From: an uncultured virus (IMG/VR IMGVR_UViG_3300027801_002629)
Lineage: Duplodnaviria > Heunggongvirae > Uroviricota > Caudoviricetes
IMG/VR virus record: IMGVR_UViG_3300027801_002629
Direction: 5' to 3' (one strand)
Length of the DNA stretch: 64,000 bases
Under the pieces are notes generated by a model. That model did not search any database and was not told the origin of the DNA. It saw only the letters and a list, made by a program, of their open reading frames with translations. Position numbers and translations under genes: made by a program. Of the stretch, positions 6,142 to 64,000 are shown piece after piece. How positions within the stretch are numbered: the stretch's first letter is position 1; each line of letters begins with the position of its first letter.

Positions 6142-6484
6142 TTGTCTGTTCCGGTTGTTCGTGCATGAAAGAAGTCCTACAGCCACATGAACCTTTTGCT
6201 GAAGGATTGTTAAATTTTAATCCGCGGTCATTCAAGTCATTTGACCAATCAATTTCTGTACCTTTAATGTAAAGATGACTTTTCTTATCTACCAAAACAT
6301 TAAGGCCAAACGATTCAAACTCTAAATCAAACCTACTCTTTCTACTATCAAAATCTACAGTGTAAGTAAAACCAGAACAACCACCACCTCTAACACCAAC
6401 TCTTACTCTAGTATCTTCAGTTACTTTCTGTTCATTCATAATACTCAACACTTTGTTAGCAGCTTTTTCGGTAAATGATATCAT
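6116..6484 (-). CDS. iscA: A-type Fe-S carrier IscA
   Basis: VRVGVRGGGCSGFTY, FNNPSAKGSCGCRTSF. Confidence 0.9.
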   Translation of the reverse strand: MISFTEKAANKVLSIMNEQKVTEDTRVRVGVRGGGCSGFTYTVDFDSRKSRFDLEFESFGLNVLVDKKSHLYIKGTEIDWSNDLNDRGLKFNNPSAKGSCGCRTSFMHEQPEQTNVREPSWM

Positions 6485-44611: not shown

Positions 44612-44639
44612 ATTATATCATGGAATTATAAATTGTCAA
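44612..44639 (-). promoter_or_regulatory. sigma70-type promoter
   Basis: TTGACA-N16-TATAAT with extended TG. Confidence 0.7.
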
Positions 44640-44654
44640 GTTTACCCTCTACTC

Positions 44655-45293
44655 TTATTTATAATGTGGTTTATTCAAAGAACCTTGAAAATGTACCAAC
44701 TTAATATCTGGATGATATTCTCCACCTAAAAAATACCAATCACCAGGATATATACTGTTTATGTATGCTTCCCATTCTCTACTTGAATCCTTCATCACAC
44801 CTATCCATTCAGTAGGCGCCCATATCAATTCCAATCTTTCTTTTACAGAATCCTCCACAAAATATTGCTCACCATTTATGGGTCCAACGGTAACTCCATT
44901 TTTTATATAATATTTTTGCCAATATGAAGGATCTTTCATAAATTTATCATAGATATATCGACAATCTTTTGGATAGTATTTTAAGAATCCACCTTGTAAA
45001 TTATAGTTAGGATTTGCTGTTTGTTTCCACCAAGCTTGTATTGATAAAAATTGACCTCTCTTTACTGGATAATTTATTAGTTCCATATAATCATGCATTA
45101 GAAGAATATCAATATCAAGTACTACTAATGGTTCATCAATATCCAATGTCATTCCATATAATTTATTCCATTGAGCAAGTATATATGGATTAATTGGTTC
45201 ATGTAGCCAGATTACATCATCCAATTTTGAATTGATATAGTCCTCATATTCTTGACCATATTTTGTTCCTATTCGTACAGCAAAAATTTTCAT
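44655..45293 (-). CDS. GT-A glycosyltransferase-like protein (GTKY..YVN family)
   Basis: GTKYGQEY, WNKL, LDIDIL, GEQYFV, LVHF. Confidence 0.65.
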   Translation of the reverse strand: MKIFAVRIGTKYGQEYEDYINSKLDDVIWLHEPINPYILAQWNKLYGMTLDIDEPLVVLDIDILLMHDYMELINYPVKRGQFLSIQAWWKQTANPNYNLQGGFLKYYPKDCRYIYDKFMKDPSYWQKYYIKNGVTVGPINGEQYFVEDSVKERLELIWAPTEWIGVMKDSSREWEAYINSIYPGDWYFLGGEYHPDIKLVHFQGSLNKPHYK

Positions 45294-45299
45294 AGTTTT

Positions 45300-46154
45300 C
45301 TATCGTACTTTTCGATCATAATACAATTCAAACTTTTTATGAATATAGTGTCCTAGTTTAGCAGTGTATCGATATTCCTGTTCGATAATACAATGCCATC
45401 TATCATCCAATTTTTGAATAGGTACTTTATGTTGAACAGATCTAAAACCAAATAACGTCTCATTATCCCACCCCAATGCACCCCTTACATTTTCTGGAAA
45501 CGATATATCATTTTTAAGGGTTGTCATATCATTGATAATACTAGGAAAATCTTCAAAATAATTTAATTGTTTATTTACGTTTTGAGAAAACCCCATAATA
45601 CCAGTATTATACGCTTCTATATCCGTTGAATATCCGTGTTCATTGAGTAGTAATACAGAATTAATACGTTTTGCGTCCGGTGATCGAAAATTAATTGCTT
45701 TACCAATTCGAAGCATGTGTTCTAGTGATATATCTCTTTCGCTTACCGCTACATTAAAATAGTTTTGACAATCCCACACATCAAAGAAGTTTTCCGTTGT
45801 GTGTGGAATAACATCAAAATCTAAAAATAATACATTATCATATTGTGGTGCTAATTGATCAGCTAAGTAGAATTTATAAAAATTTATAATATTATATTTA
45901 CTCATAGAAGGTAAGATATTTTTACAATACTTACTAAATTCCAAATAGTGTTCTAGATTTTCATATAGAATAAATTCAGCATTACAATTCCGTGCATACT
46001 CTTCTTTACACTGTATAAGATGATGGTAATATTTTTGAAAGGCTTGTCGTGTCTTCTCACTCTTGTTTAACGTATCTCCAGGATAACCTTCATTTAAAAT
46101 ATCGTGGTCTACTTGATCTATATTTACATAGATACTATAAATTACGTTGGCCAT
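45300..46154 (-). CDS. GT-A glycosyltransferase-like protein
   Basis: FLDFDVIP, YNTGIMG, DNETLF, WH. Confidence 0.7.
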   Translation of the reverse strand: MANVIYSIYVNIDQVDHDILNEGYPGDTLNKSEKTRQAFQKYYHHLIQCKEEYARNCNAEFILYENLEHYLEFSKYCKNILPSMSKYNIINFYKFYLADQLAPQYDNVLFLDFDVIPHTTENFFDVWDCQNYFNVAVSERDISLEHMLRIGKAINFRSPDAKRINSVLLLNEHGYSTDIEAYNTGIMGFSQNVNKQLNYFEDFPSIINDMTTLKNDISFPENVRGALGWDNETLFGFRSVQHKVPIQKLDDRWHCIIEQEYRYTAKLGHYIHKKFELYYDRKVR

Positions 46155-47218
46155 TGTTTCTCAAAATTTTTATTTAAAAAATGTCTAAATTTACACGAAT
46201 CAAATTCATCATAAAATGTATGACTTGATAATTGTAATAAAACGGAATTCCAATCAACAAAATAATTCCATTCTCTACCAATATCTTTTACTGGAACATT
46301 ATTAGTTATCATCTTATAGGAAAATAATACTTCATTGTTTATGTCTATATGATTAGTTACATATTCTGGCCAATTTTCAGATTGTATATTTTTAATCGTA
46401 TTACAAAAGTTATCAAAATTTTCAAAAATATTTAATTGAGCAAGAGTATCTTTACAAAACCCCATTACACCTGTATTATAAAATGTAGCTTTACCTTCTG
46501 TTAATATATCAATTGCTGCATATTTTACTGCATCATCCCATGGTCTAATGTCGTCTGGTCTATGACCCTCTTTAATATATTTTGGTGGACTTGGTGGATT
46601 TGAGAGTTCATTTTTAAAATTTTGTTTTTCTAACCACCAATCTAGGGGATATTTTTTTTCAAATTCTTTCGGAGTTTTTTCAACAATCCACGGTATACCA
46701 TGAAAACTTGTTTCCGTAATACCTTTATTGTATGAATCTTTAGCTTGATTATATTTGTCAACGTGTTGAATATATTTGTCAATGCTTTTATTATGTGCAA
46801 CCGCTTCAGACGCGTCCTCATATTGTTTAACATATTCAATAGCCATTTGAGAATTATACGGAATTGTAGACTTGACAGCAACATATTCATTAACATTAAA
46901 AACTGTAAAAAAATTATCTTTAGTATTAGGAATAACATCAAAATCGATGTACAAAATTTCATCATAATTTGTTTGACATAATTCTTCTGCATAATAGTAC
47001 TTTGAAAAATTGATTTTATCGTAATAGGAAACATTAGATGGAAGTTTATCATCAATCATCTCTGGTAATTTTTCAAATAATACATAATCAGCATTAATTA
47101 AGTTTGCATATTTTTTATGAGCTGTTATAATTTTCGTATAATATTTTTGAAAAGCATCGAATTTATTTCTGTAACCTCGTAATGGTACATATATGCTATA
47201 AACACATCTCTTAGTCAT
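46142..47218 (-). CDS. GT-A glycosyltransferase-like protein, paralog of 45300
   Basis: YIDFDVIP, YNTGVMG, NNEVLF, RHFLNK. Confidence 0.7.
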   Translation of the reverse strand: MTKRCVYSIYVPLRGYRNKFDAFQKYYTKIITAHKKYANLINADYVLFEKLPEMIDDKLPSNVSYYDKINFSKYYYAEELCQTNYDEILYIDFDVIPNTKDNFFTVFNVNEYVAVKSTIPYNSQMAIEYVKQYEDASEAVAHNKSIDKYIQHVDKYNQAKDSYNKGITETSFHGIPWIVEKTPKEFEKKYPLDWWLEKQNFKNELSNPPSPPKYIKEGHRPDDIRPWDDAVKYAAIDILTEGKATFYNTGVMGFCKDTLAQLNIFENFDNFCNTIKNIQSENWPEYVTNHIDINNEVLFSYKMITNNVPVKDIGREWNYFVDWNSVLLQLSSHTFYDEFDSCKFRHFLNKNFEKQWPT

Positions 47219-47537
47219 AATATTTATTCTCTTCAGTATTATATGAACAAGTTTCTTTACAAATTGAATGACAAGTTTTTTCGGAATTCCAAGATTCTGG
47301 TAATGTTTTGGTGTACCATTCGTGCTCTACTATTTTTTGTAAAGTATTATTAAAAATATTAAGTTCTTTTTTCTGTTTATCATATTCTTGAAATATATGA
47401 TGATCAGTCCACTCGTCATAAAGATTTAACAGCTTCCCCTTAAATGCTGTATTAGCAAAATAACAACACGGCCAAGCCTGTCCATCTGGATTTATCAATA
47501 ACAGATGTTCTTTTAACCATCTACATCTAATCATCAA
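47211..47537 (-). CDS. Stand-alone SPASM-like Fe-S domain protein
   Basis: CRW...INPDGQAWPCCY...CHSICKETC. Confidence 0.75.
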   Translation of the reverse strand: MMIRCRWLKEHLLLINPDGQAWPCCYFANTAFKGKLLNLYDEWTDHHIFQEYDKQKKELNIFNNTLQKIVEHEWYTKTLPESWNSEKTCHSICKETCSYNTEENKYYD

Positions 47538-48195
47538 TTTTCTCTAGTATAAATTTTTCATTTTTTTGATTGGAAAAAGATAAGGTTGACATTGACTCCC
47601 ATCTATTAGACGGAACTGCACAAAACTCGGTACATCCATAATTGCTCACCAATTTTTGAATATCGTCAATAAAATCTTGATTATGTTTAAACTTTATAGT
47701 ATATACTGTTGCGTTTGAATGACTAGAAAGAGCCTTCATATTATCTAAAATTTTTTGTAAGTTGGTATTTTGTCGATATAAGGAATGCATTTCTTGAGTT
47801 GTTCCATCAACATCAAAGAAAACATTTAATCTGTCTCCACATAAATGTCCTAAAGAGTACCACCAAAATTCATCTCTCAGGCTTCCATTTGTATTGAGTG
47901 TCACTAGACATTCTGAATTTTTGATAACATATTCACATATTTTATATATGTCCTTGTTCATAATTGGATCACCCCAAGTACCACATATTTGAAATTCATA
48001 TATAAGGTTTAATGATTCAATAGGAAATGCCTTTTTGAACATATCTAAAGACCACTGTATCAATGGTAGCCAAGATTGCTTTTTTAATCCATTAGGGTCT
48101 GTTCTATGACATTGTGGACATCCTGCATTACAATGTGTACATAAATCTAACCAAATGTTTATGTTTTTATATTTTGCTGTGTACATGTAATCCAT
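47527..48195 (-). CDS. Radical SAM protein (core only)
   Basis: CNAGCPQC, GTWGDP, NTNGS, DVDG. Confidence 0.88.
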   Translation of the reverse strand: MDYMYTAKYKNINIWLDLCTHCNAGCPQCHRTDPNGLKKQSWLPLIQWSLDMFKKAFPIESLNLIYEFQICGTWGDPIMNKDIYKICEYVIKNSECLVTLNTNGSLRDEFWWYSLGHLCGDRLNVFFDVDGTTQEMHSLYRQNTNLQKILDNMKALSSHSNATVYTIKFKHNQDFIDDIQKLVSNYGCTEFCAVPSNRWESMSTLSFSNQKNEKFILEKIDD

Positions 48196-49235
48196 GTTTT
48201 GATTTGCTTTTCAACCAAATGTTCGTATTTAGAATATGTATTAGAAAACTTGTCCATTGAGGATAGCTTAATTTTCATATTATCATATATTTCTTGCAAG
48301 GTATCTTCATCCAAATTCCAGAGAGATAAATGTTCTGGATAGCGTATAGTATTATACCACAAATTAGTGTCATACATCTCACAGAATTCTGCTGCAAGAT
48401 GCATCTCCCACCAATTATTTCTCATTGGATTTACCATAATGGAAATTTTCTTATTATGTGTTTCACTATACTCTAAAAATATTTTAAAATTCTTTATTAA
48501 TGTTTCATAGTTAGCATTAATTCTAATTTTTTCATATGTTTCTTTTGTGAAACCATCCATTGAAACGTTGAACCAAATATTGTTATTATCCAAAAGACGT
48601 TGTACCTTTTTGTTATATACAGTACCATTGGTGGCAATATTAATTTTTAAATTGGGATTAATTTTAACAACATTTTCACAAATTTTATGAACAATATTTT
48701 GAAGTAATGGCTCTCCCCCATTGAATCTCAATTCTTCAAGATATGGAATAAATTCATTTAATTGCTCAACAAAGCTATCATCATACAACTGTTCTAATGG
48801 TGGTAATTTTTCTCTATTTTTTCGAATACCACTACTCAATATACCGGAACACATTAAACATTCTAAATTACATTGATTACTGAGTTCTAATTCCATAACA
48901 GTAGGATACTCAATATCAATACTAAAATTGTCATATGCTAAAGCAAGAGGCCAAATACCATTATCGATATCACTCTTACATAATTTACACTGGTCTTCAA
49001 AAACATTATTTTTTAAATTGTCACGATATTGTCGAAACTTTTCTCCAAACCAAATATCACGTACAGATTTTTTCTTAGACCACTTATCTAAAAAACCACT
49101 GCTTAACCAACATGGTGAAACTTGTCCACGTACAGCAAAGTACATATTATTAAATGGTGCTACACACGGTGAAAATTTATGACAACTCTTGCCCGTTTGG
49201 ATATCACGTTCTTGATTATATTTTTCTAAATTCAT
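48159..49235 (-). CDS. Radical SAM protein with N-terminal twitch/SPASM domain
   Basis: CVAPF..PCW..CKLC; CNLECLMC; GGEP; TNG. Confidence 0.88.
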   Translation of the reverse strand: MNLEKYNQERDIQTGKSCHKFSPCVAPFNNMYFAVRGQVSPCWLSSGFLDKWSKKKSVRDIWFGEKFRQYRDNLKNNVFEDQCKLCKSDIDNGIWPLALAYDNFSIDIEYPTVMELELSNQCNLECLMCSGILSSGIRKNREKLPPLEQLYDDSFVEQLNEFIPYLEELRFNGGEPLLQNIVHKICENVVKINPNLKINIATNGTVYNKKVQRLLDNNNIWFNVSMDGFTKETYEKIRINANYETLIKNFKIFLEYSETHNKKISIMVNPMRNNWWEMHLAAEFCEMYDTNLWYNTIRYPEHLSLWNLDEDTLQEIYDNMKIKLSSMDKFSNTYSKYEHLVEKQIKTWITCTQQNIKT

Positions 49236-50391
49236 TTAAAATCTCACACCAGTCAGGAAATACATGTTGATATTTTTGTTTACGAATCTCATCAAATTTA
49301 TCAGTTTTTATTATAAACTCATTTGTTTTATCTTTGCCCTCAGTATGAAGAAATTGTGTAATCGGTGCTAATAATTCAATATCCGTATATTTGTCAATCA
49401 GAAGTCCCTTAATATAGGGATGTAAATTTTTAATGGAATACCAATCATTATAATGTAACATACCAAAATTTACGATTTTATCTGTGACATAATCTTTAAA
49501 AAATTCAATATATTCTTTTAGATAGAAAACATTTAAATTGCTAATTGTACAGTACAAGTAAATTCCAATGTGAGGATTTTCTTTCGACATATTATAATAA
49601 TCTTCAATATTACGTAGAACATCAGACCACTTTGATGGAAAACGATGAAATTCAAATCGATCTTCAATATCGTCAATGCTCAATGAAATAGTAACTTTCT
49701 TAAAACTCAATAAGATTTCATTGAATTTAGAATCAAATATTTTACCATTTGTGGTAATTGTAAGTGCTACTTGGTCAGCATACCCTTCTTGTTGAATAAT
49801 TCGCAACATCTTCTTATTCTCTGGACTCAACAATGGTTCACCACCCGTGAGTTCAAGTTCACGTATATGGGGCAACCATTCCAAAAACACACGCTCATTA
49901 GATGTATTGAAAATTTTATTACTTAGCCAATAATCTTTATCTTTAAACGTTGACCCAAAAAATTGATGTTGTTCTTTCAAAAATAGACTCGATGCTTGTG
50001 GACCACATATTCTACATTTCATATTACATACATTGGTCAATTTAAAATCAAATGAGGTAGGTGATGTTGCATCAGTTTTTGTAAAGTCTTTATTTTCCCA
50101 GCTATCTTTTTTCCATTTAATTAAATTTTCTCTATAACTCTGTACACCAACTTCTTCTTCTCCCCAACAAATTTCACATTCTTTAGGTAATTCACCATCG
50201 ATAAACCTCTGCCTTAACTTTTTCAATTCCTTACCATTCCACAGACTATCAAGAGTTCCGTCTTTCATCCACGGCATTTTATTTTCAGTTTGCTTTTCAG
50301 GTTGTGAAAATTTACAGCAAGGTCTAATTGAACCATTTACATCCGTAGACATATGATACCAAGGAGCTGGACAAAATTTATTATTCTTCAT
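49216..50391 (-). CDS. Radical SAM protein with N-terminal twitch/SPASM domain
   Basis: CPAPW..PCC..CEIC; CNMKCRIC; GGEP. Confidence 0.88.
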   Translation of the reverse strand: MKNNKFCPAPWYHMSTDVNGSIRPCCKFSQPEKQTENKMPWMKDGTLDSLWNGKELKKLRQRFIDGELPKECEICWGEEEVGVQSYRENLIKWKKDSWENKDFTKTDATSPTSFDFKLTNVCNMKCRICGPQASSLFLKEQHQFFGSTFKDKDYWLSNKIFNTSNERVFLEWLPHIRELELTGGEPLLSPENKKMLRIIQQEGYADQVALTITTNGKIFDSKFNEILLSFKKVTISLSIDDIEDRFEFHRFPSKWSDVLRNIEDYYNMSKENPHIGIYLYCTISNLNVFYLKEYIEFFKDYVTDKIVNFGMLHYNDWYSIKNLHPYIKGLLIDKYTDIELLAPITQFLHTEGKDKTNEFIIKTDKFDEIRKQKYQHVFPDWCEILNEFRKI

Positions 50392-50716
50392 CTACACCAC
50401 ACATCAAGGTACATAATTTATGAGTAGTCTCAGGTTTTTCCCAAGATTCAGGTAACGTTTTAGTAAACCACTCATGATTTAAAATGTCTTCAAGGTCATT
50501 AGTAAACAAGTTCAGCTTATCTTCATTTTTAGAGTATTCTTCAAAAATATGGTGATTTACTATATCATATCCATATGAGATTTTACCGTCTCTCTCCTCT
50601 TGTATTTTAGATGTGAATGCTGGATTGGAAAGATAACAACACGGCCAAGCCTGACCATCAGGATTGATCAACAATTTTTTATCCTTTGCCCATTGACATA
50701 CAATTTTTTTTGTCAT
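50381..50716 (-). CDS. Stand-alone SPASM-like Fe-S domain protein
   Basis: CQW...INPDGQAWPCCY...CTLMC; paralog of 47211. Confidence 0.75.
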   Translation of the reverse strand: MTKKIVCQWAKDKKLLINPDGQAWPCCYLSNPAFTSKIQEERDGKISYGYDIVNHHIFEEYSKNEDKLNLFTNDLEDILNHEWFTKTLPESWEKPETTHKLCTLMCGVDEE

Positions 50717-51495
50717 AACTCAACCTTTTCTTCTTGATTATATAATGTAATGTCTTTTTTCCCATTCCCACAAGCCTTCAATCCATTAATCCACTTATAA
50801 TAATCTTGCTCCCGATATAGTGGATTATTATAATTTGTAATTGCCTCTAATTTTTTCTTGTTTCCTTGACCATCAATAAATTCAAATTCTGAATGTTTAC
50901 CAAATCTGTTTGAAGGGAAAAATAAAATATTTGTAGCACCATGATCGAATACTAACCTAGTAATATCTTCCAAATGTTGTTCATTATGTTTAAAAACAAC
51001 TGTAAAAACGGATGATCTCCCATACTCTGAAAAAGCGTCCATGTTGTCTAAAATCTTATTTAAGTTAGTATTAATACGATATTTGCTATGCATTTCTTGT
51101 GTCGTACCTTCTATAGCAAAAAACACCTCACCCCTATGTCCTGTCAAATGTCCAAACTTAAACCACCATATATCATCATAAAAACTACCATTGGTACTAA
51201 TCAAAATATGTGTATTAGATTCGTTCATTACATATTCAATAATTTCATATAGATGTTTATTCGTAAGAGGATCACCCCATGTACCACAAATCTCTATACG
51301 ACTAATGTGTTGTAGTGTTTTAACTGGAAATGCTTTTTTAAATTCATCAAACGTCCACCGTATAATAGGCAACCAATTAAACTTTTTCAATCCACTCGGA
51401 TTAGTTCGATGACATTGAGGACATTTAGCATTACAGGCAGTTGAAATATCCAACCACATATTCATACCCTTTTCATAATACGTGTCAAGATACAT
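50713..51495 (-). CDS. Radical SAM protein (core only)
   Basis: CNAKCPQC, GTWGDP, STNGS; paralog of 47527. Confidence 0.88.
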   Translation of the reverse strand: MYLDTYYEKGMNMWLDISTACNAKCPQCHRTNPSGLKKFNWLPIIRWTFDEFKKAFPVKTLQHISRIEICGTWGDPLTNKHLYEIIEYVMNESNTHILISTNGSFYDDIWWFKFGHLTGHRGEVFFAIEGTTQEMHSKYRINTNLNKILDNMDAFSEYGRSSVFTVVFKHNEQHLEDITRLVFDHGATNILFFPSNRFGKHSEFEFIDGQGNKKKLEAITNYNNPLYREQDYYKWINGLKACGNGKKDITLYNQEEKVEL

Positions 51496-54284: not shown

Positions 54285-54290
54285 ATTATT

Positions 54291-57557: not shown

Positions 57558-58615
57558 AAACTACCTCTCAATTTAAAAAATGGTTTATCTTCATCAGAAT
57601 ATTCGTATAATTTATTTCCACCACCAAAATCCGCTTTCTTATGTAGAGCCATTACTTCATAGTCCAAATTTTTATACGGCGATATAATATCGATCATTTT
57701 TAATATCATATTTTTATACTCTTTATCATACATAAATTTTACTTTGAAAGTTTTACATTTGTCATCTCTGATAGATAAAAAGTTCTGTAGTTTATTTAAA
57801 AATTTATCATTCATATAGGCAAGATGTACACTAAATGTAACATCGCATAACGTATTTAATTTATATAATTTTTTAATATTCCCTGTTAAATTAGTTAAGG
57901 TTCTAATTTGAACATCGCTAAATCTAGTATCAGTATTAATCATATCTAACAAATCAAAATAATGAGGAATTATTGTTGGCTCTCCACCATGCATAATATA
58001 ATCTACTTTTTTGTTTTTTAAATTTTCTTCTCTTGAAATAACTGTATCAGTTATAAATTTATAATCATTTTTTAGTTTCTCTAAAGTAGGATATGGACTT
58101 ATATTATCATGTATGGTAGGAGGACAATAATAACAATCAAAGTTACACCGTTTACTTAAATACCAATCAATATGAATCATCATGTTTTTAATGAATTCAG
58201 ATGCACCAAATGCAAGAATTTTTTCAGTATTATCATATTCTGGAAGATTTTTTAATTGGTCTTCGCTGGTAGAACATTGAACCAAGTCAATTAAATTTTC
58301 TATATCTTTCTTTGTTCTTCCCTTTGGTAGCCAAATATCCTGTCCACAATGACAATTTTCCATAGGACAAACTCCAAAATTTTTATCAAATCCCCCTTGG
58401 CTGTCATCAAATAATTTATAATTTTTATTAAATTTAACCCTTGTTAATCCGCTGCAAACAGTATTACTAATATAACCACTATCGAGAAGTTTTTCATTTT
58501 CAAAATTGTATAAATGATTAGCTGTATTACATATCCAACCTTTCACTTCAGTATGAAATTTTAAATCAACTAATCTGATTTTACGTAATCCTTTATCAGT
58601 ACTAACAGCTAACAT
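57554..58615 (-). CDS. Radical SAM protein with N-terminal Cys-rich region
   Basis: CPMENCHC; CNFDCYYC; HGGEP; TNL. Confidence 0.85.
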   Translation of the reverse strand: MLAVSTDKGLRKIRLVDLKFHTEVKGWICNTANHLYNFENEKLLDSGYISNTVCSGLTRVKFNKNYKLFDDSQGGFDKNFGVCPMENCHCGQDIWLPKGRTKKDIENLIDLVQCSTSEDQLKNLPEYDNTEKILAFGASEFIKNMMIHIDWYLSKRCNFDCYYCPPTIHDNISPYPTLEKLKNDYKFITDTVISREENLKNKKVDYIMHGGEPTIIPHYFDLLDMINTDTRFSDVQIRTLTNLTGNIKKLYKLNTLCDVTFSVHLAYMNDKFLNKLQNFLSIRDDKCKTFKVKFMYDKEYKNMILKMIDIISPYKNLDYEVMALHKKADFGGGNKLYEYSDEDKPFFKLRGSL

Positions 58616-59655
58616 ACATATTCCTTTTTATTGATTTTTGCACCACATACTTTATAACATCTTTCTGGTTTAAGGTCTAGATGCATTTGTACAAGCTGAG
58701 AAAACCAAGGATCTTTTATCACTTCTGATAATCCTTTATTTTTTCCTTGTAATCTATTTAAATCCATATTATTAAACATATTAATTAATTCTTCTTGACG
58801 ATGCCAATTTGCTTGTTTATTAGGTTTATTTACTACAGAAGCATAGAGAAACATTCCTAGATAACAACAGGGTGTTATATAACCCAAGCAATCAATGTAT
58901 GCTTCTTGTCGAGCTTTGGCAAAACACGTAATTTCTTTTTTGTCTGAATATGTTTCTATATTCATTAATTGTTTTTTATTTGGCTCAATTGTTGATCTTT
59001 CAAGTGTATATTTTTTATCCTTATAGATATATTCAAGAGAGTCACCATCCCAAAATCTTTCTGTAGAAATTATATTAAGTTTACTGAAGTTTAATTTCTC
59101 TGACATTTCACGTGCAACATCAATATAGTTTTCATTGTGTTTGAATACAAGATAATCCCAGAATACTTCAAACCCAGCATCTATACACATAGTTGCATTG
59201 TTTATAATTTTATCGAATTTTGTCCCAACTCTATATCTACTATGTTGTTCTTGATTAATTCCATCTATGCCAAAAACAAATCTAATTCTTTTATTATAGG
59301 TATGTAATTTTGTACATAATTCCCACCACCAATCTTCATTATGCATTGACCCGTTAGTATGTAATTCTATTGTAGCCCAATCTTTTTTTTGAGTGTTTTT
59401 TAGAATATAATCACATATGCTTATTATATCTGTAGCTATAAGTGGATCACCGAAATTTCCACAAAAGTTAACTTTTTCTATTGACGCTAAATCGTCTAAA
59501 GAAATAATTTTTTTTATATCTTTTAAGGTTAATTCTTTTTTTAGAATCCAATCTTGAGGTTTTCCTGTTTCTATATTTGTTCTAATACATTGAGGGCATC
59601 TAGCATTACACTTATCTGTTAATTCTATATGTAATTGTTTTATTTTATTATACAT
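58609..59655 (-). CDS. Radical SAM + C-terminal SPASM protein (fused form)
   Basis: CNARCPQC, GNFGDP, HTNGS; C...YIDCLGYITPCCY...CYKVC. Confidence 0.9.
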   Translation of the reverse strand: MYNKIKQLHIELTDKCNARCPQCIRTNIETGKPQDWILKKELTLKDIKKIISLDDLASIEKVNFCGNFGDPLIATDIISICDYILKNTQKKDWATIELHTNGSMHNEDWWWELCTKLHTYNKRIRFVFGIDGINQEQHSRYRVGTKFDKIINNATMCIDAGFEVFWDYLVFKHNENYIDVAREMSEKLNFSKLNIISTERFWDGDSLEYIYKDKKYTLERSTIEPNKKQLMNIETYSDKKEITCFAKARQEAYIDCLGYITPCCYLGMFLYASVVNKPNKQANWHRQEELINMFNNMDLNRLQGKNKGLSEVIKDPWFSQLVQMHLDLKPERCYKVCGAKINKKEYVC

Positions 59656-60245
59656 TATTGTCCTATTACTAAAAATCGGTCATAAGTATTTCGAATCTTT
59701 TTTGAACCGGAATACATTATCTTTTTCAGGGGCAAATACTCAATAAACTCTTCCAAGGTATCTGAACAATTAGTGTGATCTTCTATGTCGTACCAATTAT
59801 TAGATTGTAATGCACAGATCACATTCACAGGTTTGTTTTGTAGAAAAAATTGAAGTTCTTCACGATTAACATGTTCTACAGAAGTAGACACAAAAATATC
59901 AAAATCTTGTAAAGAGTATTCAAATACATTATTTGTATCAAATTTTATATGGGGGAAAATTTCTTTTCCTATATCCTTGTGATGTTGTAGTAAATCTACA
60001 GAAATAATTGAACTTGCATTTTTAAAAGTTTCACTAAGAAGATGTGCCATTAATCCTGTCCAACCACCTCCAACAAGAATTTTTGGATCTTTAAAATAAA
60101 TTTGAGATTTTTGTAATTCTGAAGCTAACCATTCCTTACATTTAATATGATCATCATTTGTTGAATGTATGATATCAAGAATTTGCTCATCATCAATTTT
60201 GTTGTAAATTGTTTGAATGATTCTTTTGTAAATTTCAGTATTCAT
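59655..60245 (-). CDS. Class I methyltransferase-like protein, paralog of 55064
   Basis: VGGGWTG, VDL, STSVEH, QSNN, HTNC. Confidence 0.6.
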   Translation of the reverse strand: MNTEIYKRIIQTIYNKIDDEQILDIIHSTNDDHIKCKEWLASELQKSQIYFKDPKILVGGGWTGLMAHLLSETFKNASSIISVDLLQHHKDIGKEIFPHIKFDTNNVFEYSLQDFDIFVSTSVEHVNREELQFFLQNKPVNVICALQSNNWYDIEDHTNCSDTLEEFIEYLPLKKIMYSGSKKIRNTYDRFLVIGQ

Positions 60246-60256
60246 ATATACTTTAT

Positions 60257-61813
60257 TTAATTTGTCAAGTACCTATTGATATTTTTTTCCAATTTTCCTA
60301 TTTCAAATTGCATAGGGTCATCAAAATATTTAAAATCTAACTCTCTACATTTATCTGCTAATCTTTTATGTCTATCAATTCTTACTGATAAATCATTGTA
60401 AACTTTTCCATCATCATAAATCCAATACATTCTAAATGGAAAATTTCGTGGAAATCTTTTATCTTTTATAAGAAATCCTTTTTTACCATATTCATCCTTT
60501 GCTCTTGTTCTAGGTTTAACTCTCATTAATACACCAATGTACAATGGTTTTAATATATCATCATAAGGTTTAAGTTTTTCTACTGTATCCAAAGTATCCA
60601 AAAATTCTTCTTCTGTTTCTGTAGGATATCCTACAAAAAACATACTTCTAGTTGTAATGTTTAATCTATGACACTGTGCCATAAAATATATCAAATCTTC
60701 TTTTGTATATTTTTTATCCATTTCTTTTAGGGTATCTGTACTTCCACTCTCTATTCCAATTTTTATGTGATGTAATCCACTTTCTCTTAATCTATCCCAC
60801 ATATCTGGCGACATCTGTTTTTTAGCTCTAACAGCAAAATAAGCACTCCAAGCAAATTTAATATTATTTTCCTTTTGGTATTGTAAAAGTCTATCAACGA
60901 TTTGGTTCATTTTTTTTAAATCACCATTTACAATATTATCTACAAAAACAAAATCAGCAACACCATAAGTTTCATAATAATAGATCAATTCTTCTGCTAC
61001 TTTAGTTCCTTCTCTAGCTCTATAGATACCAAACTCTCCACGAACATTACAAAATTTACAATCAAAAATACAACTTCGTGTACCTTCAATAAACAAACTA
61101 GCTACACCCATAGTATTTTCAGCTAATTCATATGCATCTTTTGGATATTGAGTAAAATCAAAATCAGTATAATCTGGATATTCTATTTTACTCAAATCCA
61201 CTTTAGGTGTTCTAGGAGCTTCAAGTTTCCATTTAGGATTATACGTATCTTTATTATAAACACCACTAACATTACTATCGTCTAACAAATTCTCAATACC
61301 ATGTTCTCCTTCTCCCACAACTATCCAATCAAGTATATCCCACCCCAATTCTAATCCAAAGTGTTCAGCAGCTGAACCACCTAATACAGTAGGAATGTGT
61401 GGAGCCCTTTCTTTTAATTTTTCTAAAAGTTTTCTAGCAGTTGATTGGCTTCTTATAAAATGCACACTTATACCAAAAAATCTAGGATTTGCTTCTGCAA
61501 TCAAATCAGCCCATTCTTCTACAATTTTTTCTAAAGTTACATCATAAAAATCCTCAAACATTATGGGGTCTTGCCATAATTGCCATTTATCAGAACCTTC
61601 CCAAAACCTATCTTCATCCGATTGAAAAAATTCTTTATCCTTCTTTAATCTGTGCCATAAGTCTAAATTTAAATCAATACAGTAACATTTTTTTCCTACA
61701 GTTTTAGCAAAAGATTTTATTCTAGCAGGGCCAATAGGTGGCCGTAACTCAATACTTGGAATATTAGCTATAACAATATCTTGGTTTTTAGGTATCTTTA
61801 AACTATATGGCAT
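60257..61813 (-). CDS. B12-binding (class B) radical SAM protein
   Basis: PPIGPA, FGIS, VLGGS, GEGE, RSCIFDCKFC, GIESGS, VGYPTET. Confidence 0.88.
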   Translation of the reverse strand: MPYSLKIPKNQDIVIANIPSIELRPPIGPARIKSFAKTVGKKCYCIDLNLDLWHRLKKDKEFFQSDEDRFWEGSDKWQLWQDPIMFEDFYDVTLEKIVEEWADLIAEANPRFFGISVHFIRSQSTARKLLEKLKERAPHIPTVLGGSAAEHFGLELGWDILDWIVVGEGEHGIENLLDDSNVSGVYNKDTYNPKWKLEAPRTPKVDLSKIEYPDYTDFDFTQYPKDAYELAENTMGVASLFIEGTRSCIFDCKFCNVRGEFGIYRAREGTKVAEELIYYYETYGVADFVFVDNIVNGDLKKMNQIVDRLLQYQKENNIKFAWSAYFAVRAKKQMSPDMWDRLRESGLHHIKIGIESGSTDTLKEMDKKYTKEDLIYFMAQCHRLNITTRSMFFVGYPTETEEEFLDTLDTVEKLKPYDDILKPLYIGVLMRVKPRTRAKDEYGKKGFLIKDKRFPRNFPFRMYWIYDDGKVYNDLSVRIDRHKRLADKCRELDFKYFDDPMQFEIGKLEKNINRYLTN

Positions 61814-63251
61814 ATAACATCTCTAAGTATTCTTGTTTTTTTCTTAGTACATTTTTACTTTTTGCTTCGATACTATCATACTTTTTTCTAAATTCGGCGG
61901 CAGGAGTAAATTTTACAGTTTCCATATCAAAACCCATATTAAATACTCTAAATATTTGATGAGCATTAAAATGATTATGATTTTTAAATCTATTAGTCAT
62001 TTCTTTTTTTATTTCACAAGCTTGTTTAAAATTTAAATAACCGTTATCCCATACAAAATGTCCTTTATTATCTGGTTCTATATTCGTATATCCCCACTTA
62101 TAAGGGTCTACCATTAATCTACTAGTATTAAAATGACTTCCAGACTGACTTGGAATACTTAAAGCATAAACCTCTTTATTATCTAAGGGACAATCTTCAC
62201 TATCCAACCAATCCATAGTTGCTTCTATACTTTCTAGAGGTTCAAATGGCAAACCTATAATAAACCCACTTCCTAAATTTAAGTTACTATTTTCTTTTAT
62301 ATAATGTAAACCTTCTATAGTCTTTTCTCTAGCCATTCCCTTTCCAATAGCAGAGCCTGCTTTTTTATAAAGTGTTTCTATACCGAATTGCATACCAATA
62401 CACCCACTTTCTTCCAATATAGGTAATGTATGTAAATGTGAAATTAATAAATCAGACCTAGCATAAGCAGCAAAATATACTTTAAAAGGTAAACTAGTAA
62501 AAACATCATGCACATACTCACACTTTTCTACGCTATCATTTAATAAATCATCCATTATGTCATAATGTTGTGTACCGAAATTTTCATAATTATAAATCAA
62601 TTCTTCTTTTAAAATAGATTTATCTTTTAGGTGTTTATATGTTTTACCTTTTCCATTGCCAGGATAATAGCAATAACTACATCTAAATTTACACCCTCTT
62701 GCTATTTCTATAGGTAAAGCTTCTTTTGGAAAAATGCAATCTTGTTTTGTAAAAATTGTTCTACTAGTATTAAAATCATCATAAATAAAATCTTCTCCAC
62801 AATTTACAATTAATTGTCCATTAAAATATTTTCCCTTTATAGTATCATTTGCTATATGAATTATGGCTTTATCAGCAAAACCAATTACTAAAATATCAAA
62901 TACTTTTTTTGCTAATTTTGTATATCTAGCAGGGCCACCTCTATTACCACCTAAAATTACCTTTAAGTCATATTTGTTCTTGTATTCCTCTATTAAAGGT
63001 AACATCCATTCTTGGCCAAAAATATAATTAGGATCATCATATAAAAATGTATCACTTACACCTAATATTTTTGTTTCTTTAGTTATAAATTTTTTGAATA
63101 ATTTTGAAGCTTCTTTTTCTGTTAACCTACAAGTAAAATCTATAACTTGTACTGAATATCCTGCCAACCGTAATTCTGTTGCTAATTTATAAGCACCAGC
63201 ACTTCTCATCCAACCTTCAGTATATACATCAGATAATAATACTATTTCCAT
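61803..63251 (-). CDS. B12-binding-type radical SAM protein
   Basis: RSAGAYKLA, ILGG, RGCKFRCSYC, FGIET, IGLPFE. Confidence 0.85.
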   Translation of the reverse strand: MEIVLLSDVYTEGWMRSAGAYKLATELRLAGYSVQVIDFTCRLTEKEASKLFKKFITKETKILGVSDTFLYDDPNYIFGQEWMLPLIEEYKNKYDLKVILGGNRGGPARYTKLAKKVFDILVIGFADKAIIHIANDTIKGKYFNGQLIVNCGEDFIYDDFNTSRTIFTKQDCIFPKEALPIEIARGCKFRCSYCYYPGNGKGKTYKHLKDKSILKEELIYNYENFGTQHYDIMDDLLNDSVEKCEYVHDVFTSLPFKVYFAAYARSDLLISHLHTLPILEESGCIGMQFGIETLYKKAGSAIGKGMAREKTIEGLHYIKENSNLNLGSGFIIGLPFEPLESIEATMDWLDSEDCPLDNKEVYALSIPSQSGSHFNTSRLMVDPYKWGYTNIEPDNKGHFVWDNGYLNFKQACEIKKEMTNRFKNHNHFNAHQIFRVFNMGFDMETVKFTPAAEFRKKYDSIEAKSKNVLRKKQEYLEMLYAI

Positions 63252-63937
63252 GTTCCACTATCCAAAGAAGGATAACTTTCTTGTTCTAAACTTATTTCAT
63301 TGTTAAAATGATTTAAAACAGTATCTTTTTCTAAAGTACTAGTAAAAATCATATGATATCTAGGTAGCTTTACATGACCATTCATAAATGTATGTGTTTC
63401 AGAAGTATCAACATAATATATTGTTCCATCAGCTGGTAAATGAATTATAACTCTATGACGTTGTTCTGGAAAAACAAATAGATTACTTGGATTTGTTATA
63501 ATTGGTAAATGAAATTTATATGTCATATCTCTATGTAATCTATAACATCTTTTTTCGTTAAGTTTAGCAATACGTGCTCTAGTAACAGGTATTGGAAATA
63601 AATTTACAATTTCTTCAAAATATGAATTTTTAAACAAATCATTAATAGTGTCAAAACTATCTTCTGTTAAAGGATTTGTAGAAATATCTTTTGCTAAATC
63701 TGGTTGGGGCCCACAGCTTTGATGATATGGATTATTACTTCCTACCGTTCCATGAATAGCAATTTGGCCATTGTGCCTTCCTTCCTTGTCGCCTTTCCAC
63801 CAACCAATTTCTTCTATTTTAGGAAGAAAATTCTTTAATTCTTTTTGTAATTTTTCAATGTTAATACCAATTTCAAATTTACGTATTAATCCACAATTCT
63901 GTTGCGTCAATTGGGGTCCTATCTTTATTTCTACCAA
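63242..63937 (-). CDS. 2OG-Fe(II) oxygenase, Asp/Asn beta-hydroxylase-like
   Basis: RARI, LHRD, FHLPIITN, HTFMN...RYHM; start uncertain. Confidence 0.75.
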   Translation of the reverse strand: MVEIKIGPQLTQQNCGLIRKFEIGINIEKLQKELKNFLPKIEEIGWWKGDKEGRHNGQIAIHGTVGSNNPYHQSCGPQPDLAKDISTNPLTEDSFDTINDLFKNSYFEEIVNLFPIPVTRARIAKLNEKRCYRLHRDMTYKFHLPIITNPSNLFVFPEQRHRVIIHLPADGTIYYVDTSETHTFMNGHVKLPRYHMIFTSTLEKDTVLNHFNNEISLEQESYPSLDSGTWK

Positions 63938-64000
63938 AATTTTTAAATTCAGAAGTAATGTAATAACTTTTTCTATTTGTATCTTTACTTAACCAAGGGG
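63879..64000 (-). CDS. C-terminal fragment of the upstream gene
   Basis: Open frame ...PWLSKDTNRKSYY...ELWINT-stop running off the window. Confidence 0.45.
   Translation of the reverse strand, partial: PWLSKDTNRKSYYITSEFKNFGRNKDRTPIDATELWINT

Follow-up and report, generated by a model that had tools for sequence, protein, structure and literature searches.

The window, that is, the whole 64,000-nt stretch of DNA analysed, carries a single operon-like block of 22 minus-strand ORFs spanning ~19 kb (44655–63937), which are named g01 to g22 by rising coordinate and transcribed in the direction g22 to g01 (Table 1). Eighteen of the 21 ORF junctions overlap and the other three have gaps of 6, 6 and 11 nt, in agreement with the initial annotation, which had described more than 19 kb of overlapping, co-oriented genes. 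The G+C content of the island is 29.5%, compared with 34.1% for the remainder of the window (bin means). Near-identical island DNA is present in five non-source runs from four studies, and a contig from an independent run is identical to the window over 60023–64000 and extends 6.6 kb past position 64000. The island is confirmed to be phage-borne, as had been claimed, and to come from a marine T4-like phage.

At the 3' boundary, TATAAATA, which we take to be the T4 late-promoter consensus, lies on the minus strand at 44656–44663, and a 12-of-12 sigma-70-type promoter (TTGACA-16-TATAAT with TG) lies on the same strand at 44639–44612. Both head the next unit, in which small Zn-ribbon ORFs accompany two Mom-like genes. 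The neighbours of the island in this window are replication genes and this Mom-like DNA-modification pair rather than tail fibres, which counts against the glycan reading preferred below. The Fe–S cluster assembly genes comprise a NifU_N match (5258–5728, 171 bits) and two Fe-S_biosyn matches (5734–6186 and 6116–6484, 37 and 65.8 bits).

Table 1. Features of the window, by rising coordinate.
Feature	Description	Coordinates	Strand	Basis
Fe–S genes	Fe–S cluster assembly genes (IscU-like and two A-type carriers)	5258..6484	-	Pfam matches
3' boundary	3' boundary of island	44612..44663	-	TATAAATA motif and sigma-70-type promoter
g01	GT-A glycosyltransferase-like, distant g13 family, last gene of block	44655..45293	-	alignment A3
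g02	GT8 glycosyltransferase	45300..46154	-	Pfam Glyco_transf_8 36 bits, cut-off 24.3
g03	GT8-like glycosyltransferase, g02 paralog	46142..47218	-	41% identity to g02, 103 aa, E 8e-19
g04	free-standing twitch/SPASM subunit	47211..47537	-	Pfam SPASM 24.7 bits
g05	radical SAM core subunit, pair g05+g04	47527..48195	-	CNAGCPQC at residue 22
g06	N-terminal-twitch radical SAM, most conserved orthogroup	48159..49235	-	orthologs across viral loci
g07	N-terminal-twitch radical SAM, NF033640 member	49216..50391	-	NF033640 297.2 bits
g08	free-standing twitch/SPASM subunit	50381..50716	-	Pfam SPASM 25.3 bits
g09	radical SAM core subunit, pair g09+g08	50713..51495	-	CNAKCPQC at residue 21
g10	N-terminal-twitch radical SAM	51485..52651	-	NF033640 164 bits
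g11	divergent N-terminal-twitch radical SAM	52648..53676	-	SPASM residues 7–67 and Radical_SAM (Pfam)
g12	small protein-kinase-like fold	53673..54284	-	AF2 and Foldseek
g13	GT-A fold, GT8/GT24-like retaining glycosyltransferase	54291..55067	-	AF2 model and Foldseek
g14	methyltransferase-like (weak), g19 paralog	55064..55783	-	paralogy and Atlas lead
g15	GT-A glycosyltransferase-like, g13 family	55759..56412	-	26% identity to g13, 262 aa, E 1e-13
g16	N-terminal-twitch radical SAM, NF033640 member	56409..57557	-	NF033640 238.4 bits
g17	radical SAM with 150-aa Cys-rich N-terminal domain of no recognised type	57554..58615	-	CNFDCYYC at residue 157
g18	radical SAM core fused to C-terminal twitch/SPASM-like Cys domain	58609..59655	-	motif and alignments
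g19	methyltransferase-like (weak), g14 paralog	59655..60245	-	Methyltransf_25 E 0.0063
g20	B12-binding (class B) radical SAM	60257..61813	-	B12-binding 40.4, Radical_SAM 67.9 bits
g21	class-B-like radical SAM	61803..63251	-	CKFRCSYC at residue 187; Radical_SAM 46.8 bits
g22	non-heme Fe/2OG beta-hydroxylase-like, first visible gene of block	63242..63937	-	Cpz10 match

A scan of the 22 proteins for CX3CX2C found exactly the 11 radical SAM proteins that had been counted initially (g05, g06, g07, g09, g10, g11, g16, g17, g18, g20 and g21). All match Pfam Radical_SAM at E ≤ 1e-5; g05 scores below the 29.5-bit cut-off (27.8 bits) and g10 exactly at it. Membership in the housekeeping families MoaA, QueE and NrdG, named as a possible refutation, was not found, as all scores fell far under the cut-offs (for g06, 58.8 bits compared with 284 for MoaA).

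Five of these proteins, g06, g07, g10, g11 and g16, match the NCBIfam N-terminal-twitch family NF033640 and keep all four N-terminal cysteines; the initial annotation had likewise counted five proteins with an N-terminal twitch/SPASM domain. The family cut-off of 170 bits is passed by g07 and g16; g10, g06 (150 bits) and g11 (80.4 bits) score below it. When a 14-protein profile of the N-terminal-twitch type was compared with all PDB chains, the best match was BtrN (4m7s, E 1.1e-16), with profile positions 3–82 aligned to BtrN 164–246 and cysteines matched at 4/4 positions. The substrate of BtrN is an aminocyclitol. Twitch/SPASM enzymes also act on peptides, and two such enzymes, SkfB and CteB, were the fourth and fifth matches; literature searches found no characterised N-terminal-twitch enzyme. 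The five paralogs share 21–29% identity and form five separate lineages, in which the nearest relative of g06, g07, g10 and g11 is in another phage and g16 is a lone long branch. They are probably an old set with distinct specificities. Orthologs of g06 occur in 36/36 viral loci found (49–69% identity), its clade of six phage rows has an SH-aLRT of 100, and g10 has an ortholog in locus L001 (63–64% identity). In a natural variant contig, 49236–50376 (g07) is omitted.

By sequence alignment, g18, g05+g04 and g09+g08 are one enzyme type, fused once and split twice. In g18 (CNARCPQC at residue 16), residues 10–220 align to g05 and g09, and residues 240–337 align to g08 and g04, which bears out the C-terminal SPASM domain assigned earlier even though Pfam SPASM gave no match to g18. 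Both g18 and g05 match phrog_21308 (E 1.5e-23 for g05). The two core-only and two free SPASM proteins of the initial annotation turn out to be pairs, each free twitch ORF coming after a core-only ORF; identity is 51% between g09 and g05 and 49% between g04 and g08, the g08/g09 junction is an ATGA overlap, and the invariant cysteines of g08 are C7, C26, C27, C102 and C106. This core-plus-twitch order was found again in 5/5 related loci. The g09+g08 complex model scored 0.86 compared with 0.02 for the best control, with contact agreement of at least 83% and partner pLDDT of at least 87 across runs. The score mark was reached by 116/157 solved complexes and 2/215 mismatched pairs, counts that are only rough here because our own alignments were used, and the pass may be due to likeness to solved fused enzymes.

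The Cys-rich radical SAM protein g17, also recognised at the outset, has 11 cysteines and homologues in 28 fetched loci; a natural variant contig omits it (57554–58610). Of the two proteins called B12-type, g20 retains that assignment and is a putative C-methyltransferase. Its top NCBIfam match is the subfamily "RiPP maturation radical SAM C-methyltransferase" (TIGR03975, 123.7 bits compared with a cut-off of 281.85), an observation counted against a sugar substrate. The other protein, g21, had no recognised B12 domain in the Pfam search, shares 27% identity with g20 over 181 aa, and appears class-B-like solely through alignments to NCBIfam PhpK, HpnJ and TIGR04072, all far under cut-off.

All five DxD glycosyltransferase-like proteins were upheld. 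While g02 passes the GT8 cut-off, its paralog g03 has DFD at residue 92 and no Pfam match. The g13 model (mean pLDDT 93.6) matched, in a Foldseek search of the PDB, the UGGT catalytic domain (E 2.9e-8), followed by LARGE1, LgtC, glycogenin and XXYLT1; these listed matches span E 3e-8 to 3e-6. D103-x-D105 of g13 is invariant in 27/27 aligned sequences, and g13, g15 and g01 (the last at 17% identity, with a homolog in loci L001/L040) have an invariant G, Y and DxD in common.

The oxygenase call for g22 was also sound: there is no Pfam match, and phmmer against the PDB aligned residues 58–200 to Cpz10 (7v4f, E 3.2e-20), of the Cpz10/Asp-Asn hydroxylase type. Cpz10 functions in a nucleoside-antibiotic pathway, according to the available part of PMC9814697. 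The kinase-like g12 stood at the level of fold only. Its model (mean pLDDT 65, core blocks 74–90) best matched WbdD (4ax8, E 4e-5), with protein kinases and APH(3') behind it. WbdD is an O-antigen chain-terminating kinase, and its E-value is only ~4 times better than those of generic protein kinases. Distant homologues read PYAHxDWxLSN...LIDWD, whereas g12 has K-Y-T at the HxD position; g12 is thus a kinase fold that lacks the catalytic HxD and, with it, its family's catalytic Asp. The two methyltransferase-like proteins, g14 and g19, proved to be paralogs (BLASTP E 2e-9, 26% identity, 159 aa). For g14, Pfam and PDB gave no match, and an Atlas lead pointed to Methyltransf_31 (score 0.96, in 21% of that cluster's members); with E 0.006 for g19, these calls are weak and the function is tentative.

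Could the radical SAM enzymes and glycosyltransferases be building and tailoring a sugar? Beyond the observed gene order, domain classes, folds, paralog-set conservation and genomic company of the family, we infer a sugar substrate, the individual reactions and a target. Cytoplasmic glycan building with radical tailoring, by one enzyme operon, is the reading we prefer, at a probability of roughly one half. In none of the 22 proteins, which are predicted to be soluble, did a 19-residue hydrophobic segment reach 1.6; therefore, the chemistry of the island would be cytoplasmic. The BtrN-type twitch domain, the five GT-A transferases, and the sugar-activation or transferase genes next to these enzymes in related phages all speak for a sugar substrate. 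The top fold match of g12 to WbdD, an enzyme of O-antigen, was counted on the same side. On the other hand, the island in the window has no sugar-activation gene, flippase, polymerase or ligase of its own, which counts against a glycan.

The company of the homologues bears on this question. The comparison of synteny that had been proposed found the closest syntenic relative in phage G002, where the order g10-g09-g08-g07-g06-g03-g02 is conserved at 41–69% identity. Its island also has a PfkB sugar kinase, an NDP-sugar epimerase, a nucleotidyltransferase, a GFO/IDH/MocA oxidoreductase, an Asp/Arg hydroxylase and a lectin-fold protein, and adjoins T4 neck and gp15 genes. In the cultured Vibrio phage KVP40, the annotation places the N-twitch gene and a PF00534 glycosyltransferase together in a unit of three genes. 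Another, larger set of phage loci has at least four N-twitch genes with other tailoring genes, including a carbamoyltransferase (11/36 loci), DUF6071 (21/36), Methyltransf_24 and a protein with weak likeness to sulfotransferases. In bacteria, the surroundings of the homologues are glycan-like only to a moderate degree, and the sugar-tailoring interpretation of the initial annotation is supported in part. The 30 bacterial loci are not independent because some have a common contig or MAG. Five of them have GT2, GT4, epimerase or UDP-glucose dehydrogenase genes nearby; in the other 25, the examined neighbours included no classical glycosyltransferase or NDP-sugar gene. Carbamoyltransferase occurs in 3/30, recurrent sets of PhyH, WelO5, ABC ATPase, methyltransferase and GDSL in 6/30, and in 3/30 the gene is paired instead with adenosine deaminase and pyrophosphatase. 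Several loci have lipid-like families (CMAS-type methyltransferase, PhyH, enoyl-CoA hydratase and MMPL).

Some of these features would also suit a free product made during infection, either a small molecule that resembles an aminocyclitol, aminoglycoside or nucleoside, or a lipid or glycolipid in modified form. BtrN belongs to an aminoglycoside pathway, Cpz10 is the nearest solved relative of g22, the N-twitch profile also matches the cytosylglucuronate decarboxylase BlsE in the PDB, and both phage and bacterial relatives have neighbours of the carbamoyltransferase, halogenase and sulfotransferase-like kinds. Tetraether lipid synthase is matched by g16 (NF045702, 43.5 bits) and by the family profile (7tol, 42.7 bits), and a lipid B12 radical SAM family by g20 and g21 (89.9 and 50.2 bits). 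A cultured cyanomyovirus is reported to have a trio of aminotransferase, radical SAM and inosamine-amidinotransferase genes (available part of PMC12801897). However, all those scores are sub-threshold, the Pfam and NCBIfam searches of the visible island found no scaffold-forming cyclitol synthase, PKS, NRPS or above-cut-off lipid synthase, and five GT-A transferases fit a polymer or glycoconjugate better, so that this explanation is rather improbable. Moreover, antibiotic production is not known from lytic T4-like phages.

Next comes maturation of a protein or peptide, in which the twitch/SPASM and class-B enzymes would cross-link, epimerise or C-methylate their substrate, either a phage structural protein (e.g., of a fibre) or a ribosomal peptide with its gene beyond the window, and the hydroxylase and GT8-like enzymes would then hydroxylate and glycosylate it. 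The ranks of SkfB and CteB and the subfamily matched by g20 point this way, as do the Asp/Asn beta-hydroxylase-like group of g22, with the hydroxylase in the G002 island, the protein-directed GT8/GT24 enzymes among the fold matches of g13 (UGGT, glycogenin, XXYLT1 and GlyE), and the fibre-like genes that related islands adjoin. Yet the Pfam search found no RRE/PqqD domain in the 22 proteins, and the radical SAM motif of g05, g09 and g18 begins at residues 16–22, which leaves no leader-binding domain. A precursor gene, whose absence from the island had been noted before, does not fit into intergenic spaces of at most 11 nt. Every RiPP-family NCBIfam score is far under cut-off, and the 206 listed bacterial neighbour proteins include neither a PqqD family member nor a pair of peptidase and export transporter; we consider such maturation improbable, behind the small-molecule explanation.

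A sugar-containing adduct on phage bases for evasion of host nucleases is very improbable. In its favour, known thymidine hypermodification pathways reportedly use kinase-like, transferase and radical SAM steps, the island proteins are all predicted to be cytoplasmic, and the island adjoins the replication module and the two Mom-like paralogs, which score 148.5 and 133.4 bits against Pfam Mom. These paralogs, however, form a separate unit under their own perfect promoter, and the fetched related loci contain no Mom homologs. The islands of relatives sit among neck, fibre or lectin genes, the bacterial homologues are clustered on the chromosome together with ABC ATPase and GT2/GT4 genes, and neither a hydroxymethylase nor a base-exchange enzyme turned up in the 64-kb window.

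The pathway had been called undescribed, which proved only partly correct. Nishimura 2017 had remarked on an abundance of radical SAM genes in genomes of marine T4-like phages, with 12 in one genome, and Zaragoza-Solas 2020 on cassettes of such genes within the host-recognition islands of pelagimyophages; the available parts of both papers assign no pathway to these sets. The island is real and biochemically unexplored but no first sighting.

In the preferred reading of glycan building with radical tailoring, the five soluble GT8-like, retaining-type GT-A transferases (g01, g02, g03, g13 and g15) would take hexose-type residues from NDP-sugars and attach them to an acceptor. The eight BtrN-like enzymes, with the twitch domain N-terminal (g06, g07, g10, g11 and g16), C-terminal (g18) or on a separate subunit (g05+g04 and g09+g08), would abstract hydrogen from defined sugar carbons via the 5'-deoxyadenosyl radical, and the auxiliary [4Fe-4S] cluster, as an electron sink, would lead to keto, epimerised or deoxy positions. 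Unactivated carbon would be C-methylated by g20 and perhaps g21, O- or N-methylation may fall to g14 and g19, g22 would hydroxylate, and g12 may bind but not phosphorylate. It is plausible that the phage IscU-like and A-type carrier genes serve as the cofactor supply, in which case they would provide the at least 20 Fe–S clusters needed. The product might decorate the virion as a fibre or capsid glycan, a guess that we hold tentatively, or, ranked after it and unlikely, a glycoconjugate of the host envelope.

The 22 open reading frames of the island (g01–g22, numbered by rising coordinate and transcribed from g22 towards g01) fill 44655–63937 and overlap at 18 of their 21 junctions, the remaining gaps being 6, 6 and 11 nt. 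All sizeable genes of the window lie on the minus strand, and in binned counts the island block has a G+C content of 29.5%, compared with 34.1% for the rest of the window. The 3′ edge of the island is sharp. A 48-nt gap 3′ of g01 holds the short motif TATAAATA, the T4 late-promoter consensus, and a perfect sigma-70 promoter, TTGACA-16-TATAAT; these stand at the head of a distinct unit, in which two small Zn-ribbon-like ORFs accompany two Mom-like genes. Scans inside the island gave no excess of promoters (141 vs. 137 expected from shuffling) or terminators (6 vs. 5.2), and the boundary promoter alone stands out. The motif TATAAATA occurs seven times in the whole window, always on the minus (coding) strand, which is rarer than in shuffled sequences (mean 13.1), and the 19-kb island contains no copy.

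The visible flank of the island is a replication module, and the other flank lies beyond the window. The window derives from a T4-like myovirus, of which a DNA polymerase (at most 52% identical to cyanomyophage polymerases), UvsX, a DnaB-type helicase, the clamp, the clamp loaders, RegA, Hsp20, dUTPase and a CobS-like ATPase were recognised. A megablast search of the island against the phage collection returned no match, and a 25-kb viral fragment (G001) had neither a radical SAM match nor a match to the window's end.

The initial annotation had counted 11 radical SAM proteins, and this count holds: CX3CX2C is present in exactly 11 island proteins, all of which match Pfam Radical_SAM. They sort into four kinds, namely enzymes with an N-terminal twitch domain, an auxiliary Cys-rich Fe-S domain (hereafter N-twitch), a fused or split type, g17, and class-B-like proteins. 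None reaches the cut-off of a functionally named family, RiPP maturases included. The housekeeping identities against which the annotation had to be weighed (MoaA, QueE and NrdG) were rejected together with viperin and anSME, since all score far below their NCBIfam cut-offs. An aromatic residue ahead of the last Cys is usual in CX3CX2C; in the island, it is found in only 3 of 11 proteins (g17, g20 and g21), and in the eight enzymes of twitch/SPASM type the position is taken by Q, M, I or T.

Five proteins (g06, g07, g10, g11 and g16) carry the Cys-rich domain ahead of the core, as the annotation had proposed. By the curated whole-protein cut-off of 170 bits, g07 (297.2 bits) and g16 (238.4 bits) are members of NCBIfam NF033640 (N_Twi_rSAM, "twitch domain-containing radical SAM protein"), and g10 (164.0), g06 (150.3) and g11 (80.4) fall below it and count as relatives only. 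All five have a four-Cys N-terminal twitch followed by CX3CX2C and the SAM-binding GGEP motif. In an alignment of 14 N-twitch proteins, C7, C25, C72, C75, C122, C126, C129, G183 and G184 are invariant in all 14, and E185 and P186 of GGEP are kept in at least 90%. For a genome scan, a wide N-twitch alignment proved too divergent, and a narrower one was used.

When the profile of these 14 proteins was compared with all PDB chains, the best match was BtrN, the butirosin 2-deoxy-scyllo-inosamine dehydrogenase (4m7s/4m7t; E 1.1e-16). Profile positions 3–82 align with residues 164–246 of BtrN, its C-terminal twitch (45.8 bits), with Cys in register at four positions over about 80 residues. By this alignment of an N-terminal with a C-terminal domain, the N-twitch proteins are circular permutations of a BtrN-like enzyme, with the twitch ahead of the core. 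The carbohydrate/cyclitol substrate class of BtrN fits the genes that neighbour the island enzymes. On the other hand, the similarity of its core to the N-twitch profile is weak (17.7 bits), and the window has no aminoglycoside pathway context. A tree built from 50 N-twitch proteins mixes phage with bacterial rows and places the five window paralogs in five separate lineages; the nearest relative of g06, g07, g10 and g11 lies in each case in another phage, and g16 is a lone long branch. SH-aLRT values from a quick search are the only support for the tree, in which several long branches were flagged by the program. Literature searches on the twitch domain in combination with phages, and on its N-terminal form, turned up no work on the family and no described reaction for NF033640, which is a catalogue entry; the island differs in having five deeply diverged members in one operon, alongside two other domain-pair topologies.

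These two other topologies are one enzyme type in two forms. In g18, residues 10–220 align to g05 and g09, and residues 240–337 align to g04 and g08, so the twitch that is C-terminal only in g18 is a separate ORF in g04 and g08, the two proteins annotated as free SPASM proteins. The split order, a core ORF followed by a twitch ORF of about 110 aa, recurs in all five related viral loci. The two split pairs of the window share only about 50% identity, which makes the split an old one rather than an assembly error; low identity and recurrence together excluded recoding of a stop codon or a frameshift artefact as its cause. When g09 was modelled in complex with g08, the score was 0.86, compared with 0.02 for the best control, with runs agreeing in at least 83% of contacts and a partner pLDDT of at least 87. 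A mark at this level was passed by 116 of 157 solved complexes and by 2 of 215 mismatched pairs, counts that apply only roughly because custom alignments were used, and halves of a split enzyme may also pass through resemblance to solved fused enzymes.

The N-terminal domain of g17, 150 residues long and rich in Cys, belongs to no known family; the protein has homologues in 28 fetched loci. Of the two proteins first called B12-type, g20 has a B12-binding domain (Pfam 40.4 bits, cut-off 32.1; Radical_SAM 67.9 bits), but none was recognised in g21, a distant paralog of g20 for which no close relatives were found among viral contigs. Neither reaches a curated class B subfamily, the best scores being 123.7 against 281.85 for TIGR03975 (g20) and 56.5 against 600 for TIGR04479 (g21).

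The five DxD glycosyltransferase-like proteins were borne out. Pfam Glyco_transf_8 matches g02 at 36 bits (cut-off 24.3) and g03 is its paralog; g03, g13, g15 and g01 have no Pfam match of their own. A confident model of g13 (pLDDT 93.6, with 37 metagenomic homologues as input) matches UGGT, LARGE1, LgtC and glycogenin (TM 0.47–0.61) and also XXYLT1, which points to a GT-A fold like that of retaining transferases of the GT8/GT24/GT6 type. The DxD metal/NDP-sugar motif is invariant in all 27 aligned sequences of the g13 family, g15 and g01 among them. The 2OG-Fe(II) oxygenase call was likewise upheld for g22, whose residues 58–200 match the Fe/2OG β-hydroxylase Cpz10 (7v4f, E 3.2e-20; function described in PMC9814697); g22 is thus probably an Asp/Asn β-hydroxylase-like Fe/2OG oxygenase of the Cpz10 type, and Pfam Asp_Arg_Hydrox did not match it.

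The kinase-like assignment of g12 (203 aa) stood for the fold but not for the catalytic HxD...N loop, which is missing. In a model of moderate confidence (pLDDT 65), the best Foldseek match was WbdD, the kinase-methyltransferase that terminates the O9a O-antigen chain (4ax8; E 4e-5), followed by protein kinases and APH(3′); there were 44 matches at E ≤ 0.001, the listed ones almost all kinases. The setting resembles that of WbdD too, in that the kinase fold of g12 has methyltransferase-like proteins for neighbours and a glycan context. However, g12 lacks the catalytic HxD kept by its distant homologues. Only 13 relatives were detectable among 1.84 billion representatives, and the distant ones carry a kinase-like PYAHxDWxLSN...LIDWD signature. 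Nine of 12 aligned homologues read PYAHxDWxLxN or PYVHxDWxLxN, whereas g12 reads PYAKYTYQLSD, with K-Y-T at the HxD position; the His and Asp are missing from g12 and from four further proteins (P0038, P0039, P0040 and P0043). We therefore predict a kinase fold and regard kinase activity as doubtful. The two supposed methyltransferases, g14 and g19, are paralogs with methyltransferase signals, but these signals are weak. PDB sequence searches with g12, g13, g14 and g18 gave nothing usable, and a membrane-like segment was found in none of the 22 island proteins.

Could the island serve to build a sugar and then edit it by radical chemistry? We put the probability that it encodes a cytoplasmic pathway building and radically tailoring a sugar product at about 0.5. 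The GT-A transferases would assemble a sugar chain in the cytoplasm, the BtrN-like enzymes would then oxidise or epimerise chosen sugar carbons, a class-B enzyme would methylate a carbon, and the hydroxylase, possibly with the methyltransferases, would finish the product. Both the sugar substrate and every one of these reactions are what we infer for the island enzymes. Mycobacteriophage virions are reportedly glycosylated by phage-encoded glycosyltransferases (Freeman et al. 2023). Cytoplasmic soluble transferases acting on virion proteins, as there, would fit the soluble GT-A set of the island. The mycobacteriophage system is not known to include radical SAM enzymes.

The domain classes, folds, operon structure and genomic associations are shown by the data, and the last of these extend to many phages. 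Orthologs of g06 (49–69% identity) were found on 36 viral contigs, every one with several radical SAM ORFs; together the contigs hold 144 ORFs of one radical SAM cluster, 141 with the motif, and five records searched whole had 4 to 12 Radical_SAM matches each. The closest syntenic relative (G002) keeps the order g10-g09-g08-g07-g06-g03-g02. Its island also has a PfkB sugar kinase, an NDP-sugar epimerase, a nucleotidyltransferase, a GFO/IDH/MocA oxidoreductase, a GDSL-like protein, an Asp/Arg hydroxylase and a lectin-fold protein, and it adjoins the T4 neck and gp15 genes. A second phage group, which counts at least 21 contigs and includes one from a 230-kb record, shares a core in which a g17-like gene and four N-twitch genes are joined by genes for a DUF6071 protein and a large B12 radical SAM protein; a carbamoyltransferase goes with it in 11 of the 36 loci. 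The group also includes Methyltransf_24, an Fe-S carrier, a weak sulfotransferase-like protein and, at two loci, a protein resembling Trp halogenases, and its loci lie near Peptidase_G2 fibre-like genes. Among cultured phages, 42 records have an N-twitch homologue, 40 of them from Vibrio phages; in KVP40, the annotation places it together with a PF00534 glycosyltransferase in a unit of three genes, KVP40.0272-0274. Because relatives have fibre and neck neighbourhoods and all the enzymes are soluble, we tentatively favour a virion glycan as the target.

Large aquatic phages commonly carry the N-twitch family, as do Bacteroidota, Bdellovibrionota and other bacteria. Neighbours were annotated at 30 of 79 loci in bacteria and MAGs, some of the 30 sharing a contig or MAG; all 30 were chosen from loci of low to moderate G+C, since the ORF calling used breaks down when G+C is high. 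More radical SAM or twitch genes lie next door at 19 of the 30, classical glycan genes (GT2, GT4, NDP-sugar epimerase, UDP-glucose dehydrogenase) at five, a set that recurs, made up of genes for PhyH, WelO5-like proteins, ABC ATPase, methyltransferase or GDSL proteins, at six, a carbamoyltransferase at three, and adenosine deaminase with pyrophosphatase at three; the remaining loci showed nothing telling. In six loci (L104, L106, L074, L076, L085 and L101; mostly Bacteroidota MAGs and one Hyphomonadaceae MAG), N-twitch genes accompany PhyH dioxygenases, a WelO5-like halogenase/hydroxylase, GDSL proteins, a CMAS-type methyltransferase and an ABC ATPase of about 400–460 aa. At three Flavobacteriales/Vicingaceae MAG loci (L105, L111 and L117), a single N-twitch gene is conserved by adenosine deaminase and inorganic pyrophosphatase, a context that seems to concern nucleosides and not glycans. 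A free metabolite or lipid as the product has some support, and it is chiefly because these bacterial neighbours are lipid- or nucleoside-like, with few classical glycan genes, that we hold the sugar pathway at no more than even odds.

Maturation of a protein or peptide has some support as well. On the other hand, no PqqD/RRE family was found among the Pfam matches of the 22 island proteins or in the 30 annotated bacterial neighbourhoods. The cores of g05, g09 and g18 start at residues 16–22. The absence of a precursor peptide inside the island as far as position 64000 was confirmed, the largest gap being 11 nt, and the small ORFs downstream have their own promoter and a Zn-ribbon look.

Further window genes are collected in the table. 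Two of the three 64–65-aa ORFs have paired CxxC, and one of these two has weak zinc-ribbon Pfam matches. DruA is a Druantia defence protein family, matched here in a lytic phage. Hypermodification of DNA, the weakest of the alternatives, has some support, but a conserved association with Mom was rejected, as the related loci fetched contain 0 Mom homologs. For the sugar pathway, the cytidylyltransferase-like protein could provide a sugar-activation step.

Window genes outside the island and their assignments
Feature	Coordinates	Strand	Remarks
Class-3 lipase	1141-1929		
IscU/NifU_N-like protein and two A-type carriers (Fe-S_biosyn)	5258-5728, 5734-6186, 6116-6484	minus	
Cytidylyltransferase-like protein	14138-15172		phrog_3041 203.7 bits; Pfam CTP_transf_like weak
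DUF6267 / phrog_455 protein	18476-19708		365.9 bits
389-aa protein	34622-35791	minus	Pfam DruA 55.4 bits; phrog_19197 379 bits; inside replication module
Mom-like paralogs	42664-43332, 43570-44196	minus	phrog_1384; Pfam Mom 148.5/133.4 bits; directly downstream of island
Three 64-65-aa ORFs	43339-43533, 44200-44397, 44412-44606		accompany Mom-like genes

The Fe-S assembly genes of the window probably serve the island. An A-type carrier is also present in 8 of the 36 related viral loci, and Nishimura et al. 2017 (PMC5332604) describe a pairing of Fe-S assembly and radical SAM genes in viral genomes of the marine T4-like kind, among them one in which 12 radical SAM genes accompany Fe-S assembly genes.

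At least half of the sampled words of the island are present in five runs besides the possible source run, from four studies; because of this recurrence, the island DNA is no assembly artefact. In one of the independent runs (X2), all 30 bins are covered, and difference-free contigs bridge the 3′ boundary and extend past 64000, one contig of 10.6 kb reaching 6.6 kb further. Variant seawater contigs skip g17 (57554–58610, side 30 letters) or g07 (49236–50376, side 63) almost exactly, and in a contig of another run (X4) 48170–54287 (g06–g12) is replaced by 3375 other letters (side 255); joints with a side of less than 30 letters were disregarded as unreliable. These variants fit the cassette-wise turnover reported for pelagimyophages by Zaragoza-Solas et al. 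2020 (PMC7029224); in nature, the genes of the island appear to be turned over one at a time.

The same paper notes radical SAM cassettes and GT8 genes in the pelagimyophage host recognition cluster, which lies, with tail fibres, between the neck gene gp14 and VrlC, and its authors prefer modification of the host O-chain. The phages of both papers resemble ours as marine T4-like viruses with many radical SAM genes, GT8-type transferases and IscU/A-type carriers. The island of G002 lies beside a neck gene, as in that cluster, whereas in the window replication genes occupy the visible side and the window end the other. The island kind is thus already in print, as gene counts, and only in part "undescribed": the two papers count or mention the genes, without domain analysis or pathway. 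The window adds an operon that combines three BtrN-type domain-pair topologies, the two-subunit one backed by a model, as well as a Cpz10-like hydroxylase, a protein of kinase fold lacking its catalytic loop, Fe-S assembly genes within the same 64 kb, a defined 3′ boundary and single-gene presence/absence variants in the sea. We know of no characterised pathway with this many radical SAM enzymes in one operon.

A wider reading, which we consider rather unlikely, is that large aquatic phages share a conserved, modular BtrN-like kit in three topologies, the two-subunit form included. Working iteratively on C–H positions, the kit would oxidise, epimerise, deoxygenate and C-methylate a glycan built by the phage, and the virion or cell surface would gain a sugar coat whose chemistry is new for viruses. 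Gain and loss of single genes in natural populations would tune host range or escape from glycan-directed defences, and the N-twitch family would count as a novel functional class of radical SAM enzymes active on carbohydrates. The window offers test material, with five distinct N-twitch paralogs, a natural split pair and the fused form side by side, and the natural variants lacking single genes add to this value. If the product is a radically edited glycan, it would open a new branch of carbohydrate enzymology, account for the marine phages' own Fe-S assembly genes, and give a handle on how phages vary their own surface or that of the host.
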